This document shows positions 5,581 to 47,671 of a stretch of DNA of 64,000 nucleotides, piece after piece; position 1 is the stretch's first letter, and every line of letters begins with the position of its first letter. The position numbers and the translations under genes are program-made. Origin of the DNA: an uncultured Candidatus Saccharibacteria bacterium (GTDB lineage: Bacteria; Patescibacteriota; Dojkabacteria; B142; JAFGMG01); the NCBI GenBank assembly GCA_964391325.1, contig CAYMJM010000003.1, positions 3,211 to 67,210 of the forward strand. Reading direction: 5' to 3'. Under the pieces are notes generated by a model. It was not told the DNA's origin. It saw nothing but the letters and a program-made list of their open reading frames with translations, and did not search any database.

Positions 5581-5841
5581 CTACCGCTGGCTATATCCCG
5601 TTTCTTCCCAGGGAGATTCCCATCCTTCATCACCGGGTCTAACACAATTACCATTAAATGGAATCAGAGTCTGATACCCTTCTCCTGCATTATTCTCGGT
5701 GTTAGACGTAGCGGTCTCTAGTGGCAAAGGATTTGAACCAGCTTGTACCTCTGGAGGCTCATCAACAGGAAAAAGAGGTTGTTGTTTGTATTCAGATGGA
5801 TCCCAACATGGATCCCAACTTGGTACTTCTGGCATATTCAT
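5581..5841 (-). CDS. Hypothetical small acidic Pro-rich protein (doubtful)
   Basis: 86-aa ORF with ATG start inside a locally GC-richer (~48%) segment; contains tandem 12-nt duplication (WDPxWDP); no SD; no recognisable domain. Confidence 0.25.
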   Translation of the reverse strand: MNMPEVPSWDPCWDPSEYKQQPLFPVDEPPEVQAGSNPLPLETATSNTENNAGEGYQTLIPFNGNCVRPGDEGWESPWEETGYSQR

Positions 5842-5972
5842 ACTTTAATATTAGCCGGAGCTTAACAAATCTTGATATATCTTGTAAAGCAAAAAAGGAG
5901 AAACTTGTCCTATAAGTAATTGGATTATATAATCATTGTTTCTATCTATATAATACGGTTACTTCCCAGTAA

Positions 5973-6527
5973 CTATATTGGGGTATCTTTAAGCTTTACA
6001 AAATACGCGAAGATTGTGGAGATTGGATGTAGTGTTGCCCATATAACAAGTATGTACAAATAATGGACAAAATCAAGTTGAATATATACATAGGAAAATA
6101 AAATCCCTCCCAGTATATAATCTATTTGATCAAATGGTATCCATGTTTTACCGGGCATTATATTCGCACGTCTTTTAAAGAAACTTTTCATAAAGTCACC
6201 GGCAAGAGCGCCAAAGCTCAAGAGAAAGCCGAGCAACAAAGGCTCCATGGTAGTGTAATTTATTGGAGAAGCCTTCTGTATCAGGCTTGAGTTGTTGTAG
6301 ATAGCTGTTTCAATGTATACAGATACTGTCCCGGCTAGTATCCCGGCTACCAGCCCTCTTATTGTTTTATGGTCTCCAAAAACCCTTGTACCTTTAAAGC
6401 TTTTATAAAAATCCAGTGGATAATTAAAATTTTTTAAAACTGGCAGCTTGGCTATTATAACAGGGGTCGTATTTGCAACACCTGCTGGTAAAAAGAAGAA
6501 TAAGGCAAAAAGGATATTATTCAACAT
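5973..6527 (-). CDS. carS: CDP-archaeol synthase (CarS, DUF46) family membrane protein
   Basis: 184 aa multi-TM; motifs FGDHKTIRGLVAGILAG and ALAGDFMKSFFKRR...PFDQIDYILGG match the archaeal CarS signature (GDGKTIRG... AGDLVGSFIKRR...DQLDF) recalled from A. fulgidus CarS. Confidence 0.75.
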   Translation of the reverse strand: MLNNILFALFFFLPAGVANTTPVIIAKLPVLKNFNYPLDFYKSFKGTRVFGDHKTIRGLVAGILAGTVSVYIETAIYNNSSLIQKASPINYTTMEPLLLGFLLSFGALAGDFMKSFFKRRANIMPGKTWIPFDQIDYILGGILFSYVYIQLDFVHYLYILVIWATLHPISTIFAYFVKLKDTPI

Positions 6528-7443: not shown

Positions 7444-8090
7444 TTCCGGAATAATTTGATTATTTTATTTCTCTTCGGACCTAAAAATCCCCAGAGCGAG
7501 ACAGATCGTAAAACTAATTCAGGGTTAGTTAACTGTTCAAGCAGGTTTGATACGGTGGGCGCTTCAGCTGTGAGCGTATAAGTCCGTCCAATTTCTCCAA
7601 GCGAATGAGCATCGCTGCTTGCAGCAAAAGGCTTTGAATGTTTTTCATTAAAGTCTACAACAGTATTATTTCCATTGGGCATGATATTTCGCGCATTAAA
7701 GACTTCTATAATATCAACTAGTTGGATTAGTTCTTCCAGAATTTTTTTTGGAATTCCCTTCCGTCTAATATCAAAAGGATGTGGGATGTATACAAGTCCT
7801 CCTTGTCCTTTTATTTGTTCGATAGTTTCTCCAAGTTCTTGCTCGGGAGAAATTTTCTTTTTTAGAAAAAGCCCGATCACCTCGCCTGCTGTTGTTTTGA
7901 TTTCTTCTCCGACTATAATCTGTTCTCCAAGTTCTTGGTGCAGCGCAAGAGCCAAATCTATTTCATTATGGTCAGTAACTGCCACATAATTAAGCAACCC
8001 GGATTCCAGAATCTTTTTGTATGATTCTAGAGGTATCCCTCCGTCATGAGATAGGGTAGAATGTGTATGTAAATCTAGCTTATATGCCAT
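7440..8090 (-). CDS. PHP-domain metal-dependent phosphoesterase
   Basis: N-terminal DLHTHS(T)LSHDG and internal HPF/DAH motifs of the PHP (polymerase/histidinol-phosphatase) fold; 216 aa. Confidence 0.8.
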   Translation of the reverse strand: MAYKLDLHTHSTLSHDGGIPLESYKKILESGLLNYVAVTDHNEIDLALALHQELGEQIIVGEEIKTTAGEVIGLFLKKKISPEQELGETIEQIKGQGGLVYIPHPFDIRRKGIPKKILEELIQLVDIIEVFNARNIMPNGNNTVVDFNEKHSKPFAASSDAHSLGEIGRTYTLTAEAPTVSNLLEQLTNPELVLRSVSLWGFLGPKRNKIIKLFRK

Positions 8091-26912: not shown

Positions 26913-27899
26913 ATGAGAGAGGTCAACTCGCCTGTATGGGAGCAATGCAAAAATAACTTCAATAGGAGAGGCATTATAGATATCGTGAGAAGACCAGATG
27001 CATGGGCGCCTATTTTAGATAGGGTGCTAGAGACATTTCTCGAAAGTCAGGAAGGATTTATTAGAATTTATGAAAAAGCGCTTAAAATGCCCTGTGAAGC
27101 TAGTTTAAATGTGATTGATGTCGGTGATATTTCATTAGGTGGAGTAATTACTTATGATTTTGGGACGCAAGCTGTCCCTTTATTTAGAAGAGACTACCTT
27201 TCCAATTCAGAACAAGACAGGGTAGTTGAACAGATACCTGTTGTAAATATAGATGCTTCACGAAGGAATAAGTATATAGGTATCAGTGGACCAACAAGTT
27301 TAACATCAGGCTTCTTGAACAATGGCATTTTGTCAGTTGGACCACAAGGAGAGATTGTTTCGACAGGTATTCCTCCTTTCAAGGGTGGAATAATTATAAA
27401 ACAAGATTTATCTCTAGAGCTAGCAACAGCCGAACAATTAACAGAAATTCATTTTGATAGGGAGACTAATATAGCAGCATTAGGCGCTTCTTTGACTCTA
27501 GATACAAATTTTCTGCATGAACTGCAGCCAGGGGAAGCAGATCTTCTTCTATTAGCAAGAAGTATATGTATAGAAAATAAATATTTAGACTCATATAATG
27601 ACCAGTTTGGTTTTCTTTCCCAATCTAAAAAGGGTGATATGCTATATCATGTTGTTTCTTATTCGCCTAGAAGGGGAGACGAAGTTCACGCCGCAAATCC
27701 AACGTCTCACTTTCCCGATCCAATAGGAGAAAGTGTCGTTTGGGGAACATATTTATTGCTAAGGCATTTAGAGACTTACAAAGAGCCTAGAACAGCAGTG
27801 CTGCTGGAGGAATTTATACGTGGAGTCCCTTTTGTAGTTTCGAGGCATAGACGCCAAACTGCGCCAGTAGAATTCCTTTTCCCGGTCCAAGCAAAATAA
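26913..27899 (+). CDS. Hypothetical protein (328 aa), locally elevated GC
   Basis: Clean ATG start, long ORF, no recognisable motif; divergent from helicase gene. Confidence 0.55.
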   Translation: MREVNSPVWEQCKNNFNRRGIIDIVRRPDAWAPILDRVLETFLESQEGFIRIYEKALKMPCEASLNVIDVGDISLGGVITYDFGTQAVPLFRRDYLSNSEQDRVVEQIPVVNIDASRRNKYIGISGPTSLTSGFLNNGILSVGPQGEIVSTGIPPFKGGIIIKQDLSLELATAEQLTEIHFDRETNIAALGASLTLDTNFLHELQPGEADLLLLARSICIENKYLDSYNDQFGFLSQSKKGDMLYHVVSYSPRRGDEVHAANPTSHFPDPIGESVVWGTYLLLRHLETYKEPRTAVLLEEFIRGVPFVVSRHRRQTAPVEFLFPVQAK

Positions 27900-27945
27900 C
27901 CTGTAAAGATATCTTTTTATAGTAATAAATGAATACTTCGTATGC

Positions 27946-28572
27946 TCAATTAGACTGATTATTTAATAGACTATAGAGAGTGTTACTTAAAGCATGGTCC
28001 ACTCCTCTTAGTTCATGTTCAGTTAATTCACTATAGTACTTCCATCTTCCATGCAAATTTATTTGAGAAATTGAAGCAAAGAAATAACCGGCCATCAATT
28101 TTTCACTTACTGTGTTTATCAATCTACAATTCAATTTTGCACCTTTACTTTTCAGTTTCTTGCCATCGTATAAAGCAAAGCCGTAGCTGAAGGTCGTTGA
28201 GATCTGTCCTCCATACTTGTTAGCCAAAGTTACGTAGTAGTTTAAGGCCAAGCTATCACTGAATTTCCCATATTTTTTTATAACAGGGTCTTTTATGCTC
28301 ATGCTTGGCTTGTCTGCTTCTTCAATATTATCGAATTGAATTGTGTCATCTTGGGTTAGTACCGGATATTTAAGCCTTAACTTCTTCCAATAATGTATGG
28401 CTTTCTCTTCTGCTATTCTCATAGGTGAATTTTGATTTTCAATTGGTGCTGGAATTTCATAACTTAAATCTGAAAGTGTCAGGATTGTCAGTCTCGATTT
28501 CTGAAGTATATTTTTGACTCTTCGTATTTTAGCGGGATTTGTTGTAGCAAACAGAATTTTTTCGTACTTCAT
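27946..28572 (-). CDS. Ham1/RdgB-family non-canonical purine NTP pyrophosphatase-like protein
   Basis: N-terminal ILFATTNPAKI, EENA..KA region, DDTIQFD and SYGFALYD align with the ITPase fold motifs (FATGNxxK, E..ENA, Dsgl, GyGFgYD) recalled from Mj0226/RdgB. Confidence 0.6.
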   Translation of the reverse strand: MKYEKILFATTNPAKIRRVKNILQKSRLTILTLSDLSYEIPAPIENQNSPMRIAEEKAIHYWKKLRLKYPVLTQDDTIQFDNIEEADKPSMSIKDPVIKKYGKFSDSLALNYYVTLANKYGGQISTTFSYGFALYDGKKLKSKGAKLNCRLINTVSEKLMAGYFFASISQINLHGRWKYYSELTEHELRGVDHALSNTLYSLLNNQSN

Positions 28573-28593
28573 CTAATAGTGAGTTATAGCGTC

Positions 28594-28778
28594 TCGACTT
28601 CCTCGCCTTTCGACCCTTCGTTTACACTCAGGGCTCAAGGCTCGGAGCTCGAACTGACATAAGAAAATAAATTGTTAAGCTAAACTTATAAACTGTCAGT
28701 TCGAGCCCTTCGACTAAGCCAGGATAAACTAGCTTGCCTTGAGCGAAGCCGAGAGGAGAACTGACATACTTAAATACT
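28594..28778. repeat. GC-rich composite nested palindromic/direct-repeat element (putative MITE-like or structured-RNA element)
   Basis: 13-bp perfect inverted repeat GCTCGAACTGACA (28647-28659) / TGTCAGTTCGAGC (28694-28706) around a 34-nt AT-rich loop; outer inverted repeat CTCAAGGC (28634-41)/GCCTTGAG (28736-43); direct repeat GAACTGACATA at 28651-61 and 28758-68; CCCTTCG(AC) copies at 28604-20 and 28706-14. Confidence 0.6.
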
Positions 28779-28829
28779 AATTCGTAACTTAGATTCAATT
28801 AACTTCTAACTTCTTTTTGTATGAACTAT

Positions 28830-30080
28830 TTACAAATTCTTCCCTACAATATATCCGGAGCTCCATGCCCACTGGAGATTGTATCCTCCACATTCTCCAT
28901 CAATATCTAGTATTTCTCCACAGAAGTACAAGCCTTGTTGCTTTTTGGATGCTAGAGTTTCAGGATGCACCTCTTTTACGGAAACTCCGCCAGCAGTAAA
29001 GTGCGCGTCATCGAAGCCACGTATCCCCTTTATGTCAAATCTGTAAGATTGGAGTAATCGACTGATCCTGTTTCTTGTCTTTTTTGTTACTTCTGATACT
29101 TTTTGAGAGGAATCTATTCCTTCTGTCTCTAGGATTGCTGGAAATACTTTGTAGGGTAGTAACCCAACAAGACTAAAACCTAGAGACTTGTTAGGAGATT
29201 GCTTCCATCTCTCGATTAAATATTGATCTAATTGATCCTTGTTTATTTGTGGAAGGAAATTGACCTCAACTGCTACTGGATTTTGTTTAATAAGTGTTTG
29301 TTCTGCAATATCTCTACTTATTTCTAGGATAGCAGGGGCAGACAATCCAAAATGTGCAAACATAATGGTTCCATGGTTTTCTGTGAACACTTTGTTGTTT
29401 GCATACGCCTTGATGTTGACTTCTACTTTTACTCCTTGTAGGCTATGGCACAGTGGTGATTTTACAAGTACTGGAACATGAGCTGGGAATAGAGGTGTGA
29501 TTGTATGCCCAAATTGTTCGGCATACCTATATCCGTCACCTGAGGTGCCTAATTTTTCATGGCTTTTTCCTCCAGTTGAAATTACAAGTTTAGGTGCAAA
29601 TACGTGTCTGCCGTCAGTTAATACAATTTCAAATAATTCTGCTTTTTCATCATATTTAATAACTTTTGGTACATTGGGTTTTGCTGTTTTGATTTCTAAG
29701 TTTTTCATTTCATACTCCAGTACGTCTACTACTGCTTGCGCCTGGTTAGATACTGGGAACAAACGCCCGTTATCTTCTTCTTTTAGTTCTATTCCAAGTT
29801 CTCGGAAAAACTGTTTGGTTTCGTAGACACCAAATTGGTTAAGGGCATTTAGCACAAACTTAGGTTCCGTTCCGAAATAGTGGATGGGTCGAGAGAGATC
29901 TTTGGTAACATTTTCATTAGATATGTTACATCTTCCATTTCCAGTTACCAGGATTTTTTTACCAAGTTTCTGGTTTTTCTCTACAATAAGAATATTTTTT
30001 CCTTTTCGCGTTGCTACTATTGCAGCCATCATGCCTGCAGCACCTCCACCAATAATTATGGCATCAAATTTATTTTTCAT
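28830..30080 (-). CDS. NAD(P)/FAD-dependent oxidoreductase, HI0933/BaiN-like family
   Basis: N-terminal dinucleotide fold DAIIIGGGAAGMMAA, NGRCN motif; 416 aa. Confidence 0.85.
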   Translation of the reverse strand: MKNKFDAIIIGGGAAGMMAAIVATRKGKNILIVEKNQKLGKKILVTGNGRCNISNENVTKDLSRPIHYFGTEPKFVLNALNQFGVYETKQFFRELGIELKEEDNGRLFPVSNQAQAVVDVLEYEMKNLEIKTAKPNVPKVIKYDEKAELFEIVLTDGRHVFAPKLVISTGGKSHEKLGTSGDGYRYAEQFGHTITPLFPAHVPVLVKSPLCHSLQGVKVEVNIKAYANNKVFTENHGTIMFAHFGLSAPAILEISRDIAEQTLIKQNPVAVEVNFLPQINKDQLDQYLIERWKQSPNKSLGFSLVGLLPYKVFPAILETEGIDSSQKVSEVTKKTRNRISRLLQSYRFDIKGIRGFDDAHFTAGGVSVKEVHPETLASKKQQGLYFCGEILDIDGECGGYNLQWAWSSGYIVGKNL

Positions 30081-44162: not shown

Positions 44163-44189
44163 ATTTATCATAAAATAAATTGGCTTAGA

Positions 44190-44399
44190 AAAGGAATAGT
44201 AGACATATACAGAGAGCTGTTATGTTCTGAGAGACAGGAAATGTCGAACCTACCTTGGAGCTATCCTGGGAAACTAGGACGCATATCAGCGTTAAGATAT
44301 AATGAGTCTGTTTTAACAGTAAATTAAGGTGGTACCACGAGAAAGCTCGGCCTTATACACTTCATTTTTTGATATGATGTATAAGGCCGAGCTTTTTTC
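44190..44399 (+). promoter_or_regulatory. T-box riboswitch-like leader of proS (candidate Pro specifier CCU; antiterminator/terminator switch)
   Basis: T-box consensus AAATTAAGGTGGTACCACGAG at 44321-44341 (vs AATTAGGGTGGNACCGCG). Antiterminator fold: helix A1 AAGG/CCTT, 7-nt bulge TGGTACC, helix A2 CGAG-AAAG-CTCG. Overlapping 17-bp terminator hairpin 44343-44359/44378-44394 followed by TTTTTT. Candidate specifier CCT-A at 44249-44252. Confidence 0.7.
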
Positions 44400-44427: not shown

Positions 44428-45663
44428 ATGAAATACTCACAGCTATTTACCAGAACAGATAAGACTGCTAAAGAGTATGACACTGTTAATGCAACCTTGC
44501 TGGTTAAAGCGGGTTTTGTTAACCAACTTATGGCTGGAGCTTACACGATTTTACCCTTAGGCCTACGGGTATTAAGAAAAATTGAGAACGTAATCAGGAC
44601 CGAAATGAATGAGGCTGGTGGACAGGAAATTCTGATGCCAGCCTTACATCCAGCAGAAAATTGGAAGACCACAGGTGCTTGGGAGAGTGTAGATGTATTA
44701 TTTAAAATCAAGAGTAGAACTGGAAAGGAATACGCTTTGGGTCAAAGCGAAGAGGAGGTAGTTGCTCCCTTGGTGAAGCAGTATGTAAAGTCCTACAAAG
44801 ACCTTCCAGTGGCTGTGTATCAAATACAAAATAAATTTAGAGACGAACTTCGGGCAAAATCGGGTATCTTGAGAGGGCGTGAGTTTGGTATGAAGGATAT
44901 GTATTCATTTCATGAATCTCAACAAGATTTCCTGCGATTTTATGAAGAAATTAAAGAGGCATACAAAAGGATATTTAAGAAGCTTGGTTTAGTAGCTAAG
45001 GTAACTGAAGCTTCTGGGGGTGATTTTTCACAAAAAATTTCTTATGAATTTATGGTACTGACCGATGTAGGTGAAGACGACATTTTATATTGTCCTGAGT
45101 GTGACTTCTGTATAAATCAAGAAATAGCTAGCGATTTAAGGGACTGTAAGAAATGTGCAGCTGAGCTTATAAAAGCTAAAGCAGCAGAAGTGGGGAATGT
45201 TTTCGACTTAGGGCAAAAGTATCCTAAAGATTTCGATTTTACTTATACTGACAGGGATGGGGCAGAAAAATATCCATTTATGGGTTGCTATGGGATTGGC
45301 ACTACACGTGTAATGGGAGTAATTGTGGAGAAGTTTCATGATGACAAAGGTATCATCTGGCCGGAGCAGGTAGCACCTTTTAATGTTCATCTTATATCTT
45401 TGGGAGAGGGTACTGAAATTACCAAGGTTACTCAAAAAATTAATCGGGCTTTTCTTGATGCTGGGATAGAGGTTTTGTGGGACGATCGACAAGATATTAC
45501 TGCTGGAGAGAAATTTGTAGATGCAGACTTAGTAGGTATCCCACATCGTATTGTGGTGAGTGAAAGATCTTTGGAAAAGGGGGGAGTAGAGTATAAAAGC
45601 AGAAACGAGCAGACATCTCACATTTTCCCTAAAGAGGAATTGCTGGCTTTTCTTTTAAAGTAA
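44428..45663 (+). CDS. proS: Proline--tRNA ligase lacking the INS editing domain
   Basis: Class II motifs (KFRDELRAKSGILRGREF motif 2; GCYGIGTTR motif 3), C-terminal anticodon-binding domain; GAGGA SD 5 nt upstream; 411 aa, too short to contain the bacterial insertion editing domain. Confidence 0.9.
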   Translation: MKYSQLFTRTDKTAKEYDTVNATLLVKAGFVNQLMAGAYTILPLGLRVLRKIENVIRTEMNEAGGQEILMPALHPAENWKTTGAWESVDVLFKIKSRTGKEYALGQSEEEVVAPLVKQYVKSYKDLPVAVYQIQNKFRDELRAKSGILRGREFGMKDMYSFHESQQDFLRFYEEIKEAYKRIFKKLGLVAKVTEASGGDFSQKISYEFMVLTDVGEDDILYCPECDFCINQEIASDLRDCKKCAAELIKAKAAEVGNVFDLGQKYPKDFDFTYTDRDGAEKYPFMGCYGIGTTRVMGVIVEKFHDDKGIIWPEQVAPFNVHLISLGEGTEITKVTQKINRAFLDAGIEVLWDDRQDITAGEKFVDADLVGIPHRIVVSERSLEKGGVEYKSRNEQTSHIFPKEELLAFLLK

Positions 45664-45874: not shown

Positions 45875-47671
45875 ATGAAACGTACAATTTCTAATGAGTT
45901 AAAAAATAAAGTTGGAAAAAAGGTTTTAGTAAAAGGATGGCTGCATTCTCTAAGAATGTTAGGAGCTGTCAATTTTCTGATGTTAAGAGATCGAGGGGGA
46001 TTTACTCAGGTGGTGATTGAATCTAGAGATGAGCTAAATAAAGTTAAGGATTTGCAGCCCGGCTCTGTTCTTGCTATAGAAGCAGAGGTACAGAAATCTC
46101 TAAAGACATCATTGGGGGTAGAATTAGTATCTCCCTCGATTGTCATCGAGGTCCCCGTTAAGTATCCTTTACCACTTGATATTTCCAAAAAAGAGTTAAG
46201 CGCCAATTTGGATACTATTTTGGACTATAGATCTTTGGTATTGAGAAATGAAAAACAAATGGCAATATTTAAAATCCAAGCATCTATAATTGAAGCCTTT
46301 GCTCACAGTATGAAGGCTCAGGGATTCACGAGGTTTGATTCGCCTGTTTTGATGGGATCTCCTTCTGAGAGCGGAGCTGATGTTTTTGAAGTAAAGTATT
46401 TTGGCGACAAGGCTTATTTAGCTCAAAGCCCTCAAATATATAAGCAGATTATGGTAGGAGTCTTTGAAAGAGTATACACAATAGCCAAGGTTTTTCGGGC
46501 AGAAAAGCACAATACGTCGAGACACTTGATGGAGATCACTCAGCTCGATGGAGAAATGGGGTTTATAGAAAATTACGATGAGGTATTAGAAGTGGTTGAA
46601 AAGGTCGTAAGAGATATATTTACATACCTGGAAATTAACAATCCCATAGAGATAGAAGTGCTTAGCATTCAATTGCCTCAGTTACCGGAAGGAGGGTTTC
46701 CTAGAATTAAAGTAAAAGAAGCTTTGACCTTGATAGAGCAAAGAACTGGCAAATCAGCCAACAGAGAAGAGTTGGATGTTGACCCCGAGGACGAAAGGGA
46801 GATTACAGAATGGGCTAAAGAAGAACACAATTCTGAGTTTGTTTGGCTGCTAAATTTTAAATCCAATAAGAATTTTTATACATTAGACAATCCAGAAGAC
46901 AAAGGTGAATCTTTTAGTTATGACCTGCTATGTAGGGGGTTGGAATGGCTATCTGGGACTCATAGAATCCACAACTATAGTACACTACTGGAAAGACTAA
47001 AAAATCAAGGGTTGCAGGAGGAGCATTACAGCCATTACTTACAGGCTTTCAAATATGGTATGCCTTCTGAAGCGGGTTTTTCTTTTGGACTGGAGCGGGT
47101 AACACAACAGATTGTAGGGCTAGACAATATACGTGAAGCTACGCTTTTTCCTTCTGATCAGAAAAGAATTGCAGGGGCTAGAATTAAGAGAAAAGTAGTA
47201 CATGGAGAGGAGGAAGTTATCCGAGCTATTAAAACAATGTTTGAGGAAAGCAATAAGGAGTATAGATTTTTTGAACATGAAGCAACTATAACTTCTCAGG
47301 ATGCTGCTCGAATTCGTGGAACGAATCCAGATGAGGGGGTAAAAGCTTTGATTCTCAGATCCAAAAAAGATGGTAGAAACATAATGCTATGCTTACAGGG
47401 CAGTAAGAAAATAGATATGGGTAAATTGAAAAATTTATTGGGAGAATCCTTTACCTTTGAAGAGGCAGATAAGATAAAGCAAAGGTATGGTTTAGAGATA
47501 GGAGGAATCCCTCCTTTTGGCAATATTTTGGGTTTGGAGACCTACTTTGATTCTTCTATATTAAATACAGAGTATGTTTCTTTTAATTGTGGAAGCAGAT
47601 ATAAGTCAATACGTACAAAGACAAATAATTTAGCTAAACTTGTGTCACCTCAAATAGTTGATGTAGTGTAG
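45875..47671 (+). CDS. aspS: Aspartate--tRNA ligase (archaeal/eukaryal-type class IIb core) fused to a C-terminal YbaK/ProX-like aminoacyl-tRNA deacylase domain
   Basis: OB anticodon-binding N-terminus, motif 2 FRAEKHNTSRHLMEITQLDGEM, motif 3 GFSFGLERV, canonical class IIb C-terminus FPSDQKR at ~aa 440. A further ~150 aa follows with the YbaK pattern (VKALILRSKKDGRNIMLCLQG...GLEIGGIPPFGNILGLETYFD...VSFNCGS). Confidence 0.8.
   Translation: MKRTISNELKNKVGKKVLVKGWLHSLRMLGAVNFLMLRDRGGFTQVVIESRDELNKVKDLQPGSVLAIEAEVQKSLKTSLGVELVSPSIVIEVPVKYPLPLDISKKELSANLDTILDYRSLVLRNEKQMAIFKIQASIIEAFAHSMKAQGFTRFDSPVLMGSPSESGADVFEVKYFGDKAYLAQSPQIYKQIMVGVFERVYTIAKVFRAEKHNTSRHLMEITQLDGEMGFIENYDEVLEVVEKVVRDIFTYLEINNPIEIEVLSIQLPQLPEGGFPRIKVKEALTLIEQRTGKSANREELDVDPEDEREITEWAKEEHNSEFVWLLNFKSNKNFYTLDNPEDKGESFSYDLLCRGLEWLSGTHRIHNYSTLLERLKNQGLQEEHYSHYLQAFKYGMPSEAGFSFGLERVTQQIVGLDNIREATLFPSDQKRIAGARIKRKVVHGEEEVIRAIKTMFEESNKEYRFFEHEATITSQDAARIRGTNPDEGVKALILRSKKDGRNIMLCLQGSKKIDMGKLKNLLGESFTFEEADKIKQRYGLEIGGIPPFGNILGLETYFDSSILNTEYVSFNCGSRYKSIRTKTNNLAKLVSPQIVDVV

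Follow-up and report, generated by a model that had tools for sequence, protein, structure and literature searches.

A palindromic block in a Dojkabacteria genome is probably a relic copy of a modular intergenic repeat family found mainly in Bacteroidota

Introduction

In the 64,000-nucleotide stretch of DNA analyzed here (the window, from contig CAYMJM010000003.1), a strongly palindromic block occupies positions ~28591-28768, inside a 257-nt spacer (28573-28829) between two open reading frames (ORFs) of the minus strand, which encode a BaiN-like flavoprotein and a Ham1-like protein. This locus raises the question of whether the block is a piece of repeat DNA or a structured RNA serving one of its neighbours. 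A sequence-only reading of the window had named both, proposing either an interspersed element that resembles MITEs (miniature inverted-repeat transposable elements) or repetitive extragenic palindromic (REP) sequences, or else a highly structured small RNA or attenuator. The results reported below indicate that the block is a degenerate composite copy of a modular palindromic intergenic repeat family, and probably a horizontally acquired REP/MITE-like relic which is likely passive.

The palindromic architecture described in that reading was recovered from the sequence, both inverted repeats and both direct repeats being located. Two arms of 13 nt, GCTCGAACTGACA/TGTCAGTTCGAGC, at 28647-28659 and 28694-28706, form a perfect inverted repeat and enclose an AT-rich loop of 34 nt. 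An outer inverted repeat, GCTCAAGGC/GCCTTGAGC, was found at 28633-28641 and 28736-28744; its arms are 9 nt long instead of the 8 nt previously given. The direct repeat GAACTGACATA has its two copies at 28651-28661 and 28758-28768, and the expected CCCTTCG-containing copies are present at 28614 and 28706, together with a CCTTTCG at 28606. The sole ORF in the spacer, of 56 aa and with a TTG start, has no Pfam match.

The block had also been called GC-rich. This is true when it is compared with the genuine short spacers of the window (18-30% GC), but not in absolute terms: the GC content is 47% for the whole element and 55% for its arms without the loop, against 36.7% for the 64-kb window. The data thus demonstrate that the composition of the element is foreign to the spacers among which it is found.

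A modular palindromic repeat family in Bacteroidota

An exact-pattern scan with TCGAACTGACA-N{20,50}-TGTCAGTTCGA was carried out on 185,579 genomes, one per species (596 Gb), a collection in which the species of the window is not included. The scan demanded 22 exact bases, so diverged copies would be missed. It returned 43 loci, 39 of which carry Bacteroidota titles (Flavobacteriales, Cytophagales, Sphingobacteriales and unclassified metagenome-assembled genomes, MAGs), and several genomes were matched two to four times. A second scan, on metagenomes, added 8 copies of the simpler form called type II below.

The four other loci (L008, L011, L015 and L019, from Actinomycetota and Chloroflexota) are perfect long hairpins situated just past stop codons, without the other features of the family. 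They are probably unrelated terminator or REP-like hairpins, and their number is the chance recurrence expected for an 11-nt stem in 596 Gb. In these high-GC hosts, the TCGAACTGACA...TGTCAGTTCGA ends close palindromes located 0-25 nt from the stop codon, and L011 contains three tandem TCGAACTGACAcccca half-sites.

As a single strand, a canonical copy of the family folds into a four-way junction, in which the stems P1 (GTTCTCGATAC) and P3 (CACTCGAACTGACA) are invariant, two side hairpins covary and the loop is hypervariable. In the canonical order, from 5' to 3', P1 (GGTTCTCGATAC) is followed by the P2 hairpin, P3 (CACTCGAACTGACA), a loop of 20-50 nt, TGTCAGTTCGAGTG, the P4 hairpin and the closing arm of P1 (GTATCGAGAACC). 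A second form, type II, lacks P2 and P4 and consists of a single long hairpin, GGTTCTCGACTNCGC-TCGAACTGACA...TGTCAGTTCGA-GCGNAGTCGAGAACC; hybrids between the canonical and type II forms exist (L023 and L028). The P1 motif was present on both sides in 32 of 45 matches, though it lies outside the search pattern. In 14 clean copies, P1 and P3 were nearly invariant, while all 13 P2/P4 pairs were altered on both sides with 90-94% of the cells still paired. Over these 14 copies as a whole, 95.8% of the cells were paired, versus 30-45% when the partners were slid, and none of 500 shuffles did equally well. The identity of the 11-14-nt stems across Bacteroidota orders, together with the covarying side hairpins, implies a conserved trans-acting partner. 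A covariance model, R1, was built from the family; canonical copies score 75-107 bits with it, and it recovered all these copies, on both strands, as well as copies missed by the exact pattern.

All copies are intergenic. They lie between 14 same-direction, 9 convergent and 2 divergent gene pairs, which points to a preference for spacers that hold the 3' end of a gene. To the 63 proteins encoded beside the copies, Pfam assigns 95 families with no relation to one another; among the best 25 of these no recurrent family and no transposase, Y1_Tnp included, was found. Likewise, the HUH-Y1 signature was absent from a six-frame scan of the family loci sampled, so that no Y1/HUH gene stands beside any sampled copy by either test. 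When the better-folding strand was compared with the direction of the flanking genes, 5 copies favoured the sense strand versus 13 that did not. As there is no sense-strand bias, the constraint looks to be exerted at the DNA level or in a strand-neutral way and is not specific to a sense RNA.

The loops called variable can be shared within a genome: at L014 and L023, which are different loci of one MAG, they are nearly identical (31/34 nt), and this indicates a recent intragenomic spread. In addition, a Maribacter MAG (L012, NZ_CAXBOU010000021.1) contains tandem arrays at 5640-6428 and 7486-8000, in which at least 8 units repeat every 166-170 nt. These arrays bracket a 265-aa ORF with a ComEA-like HHH_3 motif and DUF6623, and within them the P1 arms of neighbouring units form an additional hairpin.

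Searches of Rfam gave nothing relevant for 12 + 4 canonical loci. Collections of viral contigs, phages and plasmids contained neither the hairpin nor the window element nor a canonical copy. No description of the family was met in full-text motif searches, which returned unrelated primers only, or in literature searches on REP, REP-associated tyrosine transposases (RAYTs) or MITEs in Bacteroidetes. The family thus seems to be uncatalogued. Several known classes of structured DNA were considered and rejected: an integron attC site (R'/R'' do not fit and their order is reversed), a LexA/Cheo box (wrong spacing), a CRISPR array (the loops of the tandem units are nearly identical) and a retron (Pfam and NCBIfam scans of flanking ORFs gave no reverse-transcriptase gene).

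The window element is a copy of this family

When applied to the window, model R1 gave one match, at 28589-28757 on the minus strand (36.1 bits, E about 1e-6), covering model positions 1-126 with the four helices aligned. This score is well under the 75-107 bits of canonical copies. The P3 stem of the window, CTCGAACTGACA/TGTCAGTTCGAG, is a perfect 13-bp stem, and its 34-nt loop fits the 20-50 nt of the variable loop of the family.

The outer stem of the element carries the P1 motif, (G)TTCTCGA(T/C).../...TCGAGAA(C). The type II version of this motif, GTTCTCGACTNC, with one error allowed, occurs only once in 128 kb (the 64-kb window on both strands), at 54 nt from P3. Furthermore, an exact 10-mer of the window P1, TCTCGACTTC, is that of a Lacihabitans copy, and the 3' arm of P1 agrees with the consensus at 13 of 16 positions. 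The module CCCTTCG-N5-10-CAGGR is found twice in the window, both times within the element, against 0.09 expected; it is also enriched in loci of the Bacteroidota type (5 versus 0.5 expected).

A direct parallel was provided by a metagenome contig (L060), in which P3, CCCTTCG..CAGGATAAAC and P1 follow one another as the same composite, with the module in the same position as in the right half of the window element. The two sequences share a 20-nt identity, CTGTCAGTTCGAGCCCTTCG, across the junction, plus CAGGATAAAC, and the loop of L060 belongs to a subfamily found in two MAGs named 'Bacteroidetes bacterium palsa'. The closest copies are those of L060 and of the palsa_966/967 MAGs, with which the window element has the composite and the type II backbone in common. 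Judged from these sequence comparisons, the window element is a type II backbone in which a module has been inserted on each side between P1 and P3, with an extra P3 half-site at 28758-28768.

The proposal of a MITE- or REP-like interspersed element is therefore borne out as far as dispersal is concerned: beyond the R1 match, related copies stand at dozens of unrelated intergenic loci, mostly of Bacteroidota, with more than one copy in several genomes, and these data demonstrate that the window element is a member of the family. Within the 64-kb window itself, no second copy was found by BLAST, by motif searches or with R1 at E <= 10.

The small module deserves a separate mention. With the pattern CCCTTCG-N5-10-CAGG(G/A), or CCCTTCGACAAGCTCAGGGTGAC in its fuller form, it is present in the window at 28614-28633 and 28706-28724 and at loci L007, L017, L023 and L060. 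Its sequence gives it the look of a distinct short palindromic repeat family that may insert into the larger one.

Host lineage and history of the locus

The genome that bears the element is not that of a Bacteroidota host. All named relatives of the LepA protein of the window are Candidatus Dojkabacteria (60-75% identity), and the best named relatives of the BaiN-like protein are from Dojkabacteria (53%) and Patescibacteria (46%). RNase J1 is also encoded in the window, and a T-box precedes proS. In a Dojkabacteria genome, a repeat of the Bacteroidota type has the appearance of imported repeat DNA, not of a dedicated regulator.

Nine further assemblies of the species, obtained from different runs (L001 and L047-L054), carry the 257-nt spacer unchanged; it is therefore no chimera, and the species has it fixed. 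With a strain divergence of 0.6%, ~1.5 differences are expected in 257 nt and the absence of any is not significant; purifying selection, read from the strain comparison, was consequently dropped as uninformative.

In the closest different relative (L045), the BaiN homologue is 74% identical, and both the element and the Ham1-like gene are absent from the corresponding slot. This slot extends from the BaiN-like gene to a conserved gene of 328/360 aa (38% identity), that is, from 26913 to 28830 in the window and from 3135 to 5067 in L045; it is occupied in L045 by an unrelated 252-aa gene on the opposite strand, and in the window by the Ham1-like gene and the element. Moreover, no such element precedes the Ham1-like homologues whose identity is 58% and 44%, and none follows the BaiN homologue of 74% identity. 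Its absence from these homologous loci demonstrates that the element is lineage-specific, an insertion in a variable slot, and not a conserved leader. A conserved Ham1 leader and a BaiN 3' element were both rejected for this reason. No transposase was identified near the element among the proteins of the window.

Folding of the element and a possible role as RNA

Folding was calculated on both strands, and on both the element is better than shuffled controls. For the spacer, the folding energy of the sense (minus) strand is -81.2 kcal/mol (z = -5.3), a value equalled by none of 200 shuffles, and z is -3.6 for the plus strand; these values demonstrate a strong capacity to fold as a single strand. 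On the sense strand, a nested hairpin (-73.6 kcal/mol) and the four-way junction (-74.1 kcal/mol) are iso-energetic. The antisense fold of the element reaches -58.5 kcal/mol, and the resulting gap of 15.6 kcal/mol is the largest strand asymmetry among 42 copies. G.U pairs number 5 in the sense fold and 2 in the antisense fold, a difference that is not significant.

This asymmetry, a single case and not a significant one, hints in the fold predictions at tolerance or exaptation at the RNA level. The element might then act in cis in a BaiN-Ham1 transcript, as a barrier to 3' exonucleases or a processing site uncoupling the two mRNA levels, as a factor-dependent terminator or by supplying the Ham1-like gene with a promoter. 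Stabilisation or processing of mRNAs and the creation of promoters are known effects of REP, ERIC and Correia elements. The sense-strand z value, the fixation of the element in all 10 assemblies of the species and the short distance (19 nt) from the end of the outer stem (28592) to the Ham1-like ATG are in line with such a role. The same holds for a sigma-70-like site, CTGACA-17-AACAAT, at 28699-28671 on the minus (sense) strand, within P3 and its loop. However, this promoter-like match is weak (9/12 positions, with 4 such sites in the region versus 1.8 expected), no terminator with a U tract was found, the wobble pairs are not significantly biased, the Bacteroidota copies show no sense-strand preference (5 versus 13), and the element is conserved with neither gene in relatives. 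An exapted RNA role for the window copy is thus considered unlikely.

CTGACA, which belongs to the conserved P3 motif, is a near-consensus -35 hexamer and is directed into the loop on both strands. On the basis of this motif, an imported repeat could serve as a promoter in a host of the sigma-70 type.

Other explanations of the block

The element could also belong to a native, possibly active repeat family of Dojkabacteria, with more copies outside the 64 kb analyzed, its likeness to Bacteroidota copies then being due to a shared mobilising element and not to a one-off import. The window covers ~6% of a genome of roughly 1 Mb (a size assumed from the phylum), the species stands outside the scanned collection, as the lack of a self-match shows, and both the extra half-site at 28758-28768 and the inserted modules bear witness to rearrangement. 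On the other side, the window holds no second copy even with R1 at E <= 10 or by motif searches, and no copy was seen in ~30 kb of related genomes (L045, L046 and L056-L058). Patescibacteria are absent from the 43 loci, for which only exact matches were sought in a collection without the species of the window; the P3 variant specific to the window gave 0 matches in 241 million metagenome records; and no transposase was found nearby. With these results, a native family is a doubtful explanation.

That the block is a gene for an independent small RNA, or else a leader of the Ham1-like gene acting like a riboswitch, is highly improbable. A strong predicted structure does stand immediately upstream of the Ham1-like start codon, but Rfam 15 contains no family that matches the element at the gathering threshold, and the element at E <= 10 gave only miRNA-type matches at chance level; nothing relevant was therefore obtained at either stringency. 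The conserved nucleotides of the family are in the stems while all its loops vary, which would be the reverse of the situation in ligand-binding RNAs. Homologues of Ham1 do not carry the element, the copies of the family stand beside unrelated genes, and no terminator was found. The structured small RNA or attenuator that had been proposed between the Ham1-like and BaiN-like genes is for the same reasons not supported.

Finally, a fortuitous palindrome, an ordinary bidirectional terminator or an assembly artefact may practically be discarded: even if L008, L011, L015 and L019 illustrate that an 11-nt stem recurs by chance in 596 Gb, none of 200 shuffles folds equally well, the block has its P1 motif, module and four-helix architecture in common with the family, the flanking genes are on the same strand with no T-run between them, and the sequence is identical in 10 independent assemblies.

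Comparison with known repeat systems

Like REP sequences, bacterial interspersed mosaic elements (BIMEs) and REPINs (REP doublets forming hairpins), the family is intergenic, palindromic, dispersed among unrelated genes and biased to gene 3' ends. Its conserved motif comes in inverted pairs that bracket a variable spacer, as in REPINs, and the family has the mosaic or modular combinations, clusters and arrays of BIMEs. As for REPs, there is no target-site duplication and the hairpins have to form in single strands. However, REPs measure 20-40 nt, whereas the units of the family are 85-180 nt long (~165 nt in the window) and form a four-way junction. Unlike REPs, the family has no GT[AG]G foot; a CGTC precedes the window P1 at 28590-28593, where canonical copies read CGTTC.

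GTAG and CGTC super-families of REPs have been described, the CGTC-tagged ones being without a dedicated transposase (PMC3733652). In the CGTC families that have been published, stems measure 8-9 bp and loops 4-5 nt (PMC3733652), and the stems and loops of the present family do not fit this pattern. The RAYTs of subclass 2.6, mostly from Bacteroidetes, have genes bordered by 'atypical secondary structures' that also occur at other sites of the genome (PMC6006769). None of the motifs of the family is listed in the published supplementary table of RAYT-flanking REPs (PMC6006769). Furthermore, REPs usually diverge together with their RAYT, whereas the stems of this family are invariant across Bacteroidota orders.

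A second resemblance is with the enterobacterial repetitive intergenic consensus (ERIC, also called intergenic repeat unit, IRU), Correia/NEMIS, BOX, RUP and Rickettsia palindromic elements, which share with the family a length of 100-200 nt, terminal inverted repeats (here P1) and a stable fold of the whole unit. The internal insertion of extra modules is also known for ERIC and BOX. Like all these elements, the family would be sited in spacers that are transcribed, and elements of these kinds are known to influence promoters or the stability and processing of mRNAs.

The P1 arms provide the terminal inverted repeats of a MITE. In contrast with MITEs, no consistent direct repeat flanks P1, either in the copies inspected by eye or in the window, so there is no target-site duplication, and the phage and plasmid collections gave no match from which a parent insertion sequence sharing its ends could be recognised. 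Most families of MITEs are confined to one genus (PMC11602168), whereas the 11-14-nt stems of the present family are the same in Flavobacteriales, Cytophagales and Sphingobacteriales, and one copy is in another phylum. The element also shares with intrinsic terminators a GC-rich hairpin downstream of a gene, but it has no T/U tract, its P3 loop is 34 nt long, the whole structure spans ~165 nt, and 0 terminator-like sites were predicted in 28300-29100. By analogy, the element would be closest in its working to REP/BIME/REPIN or to ERIC/Correia-type palindromic repeats, from which it departs by the missing GTAG foot and the missing target-site duplication.

Proposed origin of the element and its significance

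The preferred explanation, a horizontally acquired relic of the family, would involve the following steps. In Bacteroidota, the repeats would spread in a REP/REPIN- or MITE-like manner, with a factor recognising the invariant P1 and P3 stems in single-stranded DNA. One copy, or a fragment bearing a copy, would then have entered the Dojkabacteria lineage horizontally, after its split from the nearest sampled relative, and have become fixed in the species. At present, the element is most likely passive and does nothing specific. It is probably co-transcribed with the same-strand flanking genes, which would place a structure of ~-74 kcal/mol in the spacer from BaiN to Ham1. By analogy with REP, ERIC and Correia elements, this structure could incidentally block 3' exonucleases or attenuate read-through. 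A dedicated and conserved regulator, be it a leader, a riboswitch or a classical terminator, is not supported.

Several points weigh against this explanation. At the loci inspected, neither an empty site nor a target-site duplication nor a cognate transposase was seen, and mobility as well as the direction of transfer are therefore what we infer. The single-copy status of the element rests on 64 kb of its genome. As the genome scan required 22 exact bases and lacked the species of the window, diverged copies in Patescibacteria would escape it. At a divergence of 0.6%, the lack of spacer differences between strains does not reach significance. The P3 match is obtained by construction, P3 being the bait, and independent support comes from P1, the module and the architecture. 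The 14 copies used for the covariation count were picked for their clean folding, and the 'covariation' of P2 and P4 may come in part from the insertion of different small palindromic modules and not from compensatory substitution.

A broader claim would be that the family is an undescribed, phylum-wide single-strand element of Bacteroidota, mobile or functional, with a hypervariable loop, tandem arrays and sequence-invariant stems to which a conserved factor binds, and that, jointly, the Dojkabacteria copy records the uptake of DNA by an episymbiotic bacterium of the candidate phyla radiation (CPR) from a Bacteroidota host or neighbour. Taken as a whole, this claim is quite unlikely. If it were true, lineage-specific repeats could act as host-tracing markers for CPR bacteria. 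MITEs common to viruses and their hosts have been proposed as markers of this kind (PMC11602168). As to the trans-acting partner, the Bacteroidetes-specific Y1 transposases flanked by 'atypical secondary structures' are a candidate only, which the literature does not confirm.

For the window, the outcome is mostly deflationary, since the striking palindrome is a copy of repeat DNA and not a new riboswitch or small RNA. The window element would be an ordinary relic, and what is noteworthy is the family itself and the fact that a CPR genome harbours it: the fixation of a repeat of the Bacteroidota type in a species of Dojkabacteria would be a concrete and checkable trace of DNA flow between phyla into such a genome.

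Map of the element and other features of the window

Along the plus strand, the element begins with the 5' arm of P1 at 28591-28605, where GTCTCGACTTC, aligned with type II copies, is the type II outer-stem motif GTTCTCGACTNC minus one nucleotide; the folds give 28741-28754 as its partner. The first inserted hairpin module, which is P4 on the sense (minus) strand, follows at 28606-28641 and contains CCCTTCG...CTCAGGG (28614-28633) and the inverted-repeat arm GCTCAAGGC (28633-28641). The first arm of P3 (28645-28659) holds the family-defining CTCGAACTGACA of the perfect inverted repeat, the same 11-mer pair being found at 43 loci elsewhere. It is separated by the AT-rich 34-nt loop (28660-28693), where the family is hypervariable and other copies have 20-50 nt, from the second arm (28694-28708), which contains TGTCAGTTCGAGC and is complementary to 28645-28659. 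The second inserted module, CCCTTCGACTAAGCCAGGATAAAC..., occupies 28706-28740, with the sense-strand P2 hairpin at 28712-28738. The end of this module overlaps the start of GCCTTGAGC, which extends from 28736 to 28744 into the P1 arm. This last arm, GAGCGAAGCCGAGAGG (28741-28756), agrees at 13 of 16 positions with the type II consensus GAGCGAAGTCGAGAAC. The additional P3 half-site GAACTGACATA ends the element at 28758-28768; extra half-sites are common in the Cytophagales copies (L017, L024, L026, L037 and L042).

The upstream flanking gene, at 28830-30080 on the minus strand, encodes the HI0933/BaiN-like flavoprotein (Pfam HI0933_like, E = 1e-79), and the element lies in the 3' region of this gene. 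The downstream one, at 27946-28572 on the minus strand, encodes the Ham1-like protein (Pfam Ham1p_like, E = 1e-8). The Ham1-like gene is a hotspot of strain differences, with 11 of the 39 differences counted in 6.6 kb between the window and L048. Next to this hotspot, the same two sequences show 0 differences in 629 nt (28400-29027), the element included.

Two observations concern translation in this genome. A Shine-Dalgarno-like motif was found upstream of only 3 of the 43 window ORFs of at least 200 aa (7%), and initiation, as far as these upstream sequences indicate, seems to be largely independent of such motifs. Taken by itself, this scarcity suggested a Bacteroidota host, but the genome is that of a member of Dojkabacteria. 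The T-box leader extends from 44177 to 44357 on the plus strand (97.4 bits, for a gathering score of 93) and precedes a short proline-tRNA ligase of 411 aa (44428-45663). Directly downstream, at 45875-47671 on the plus strand, a 598-aa fusion unites a non-discriminating archaeal-type aspartate-tRNA ligase (residues 1-432) with a YbaK/EbsC Cys-tRNA(Pro) deacylase (residues 462-597), so that a trans-editing domain of proline-tRNA ligase is joined to the aspartate enzyme.

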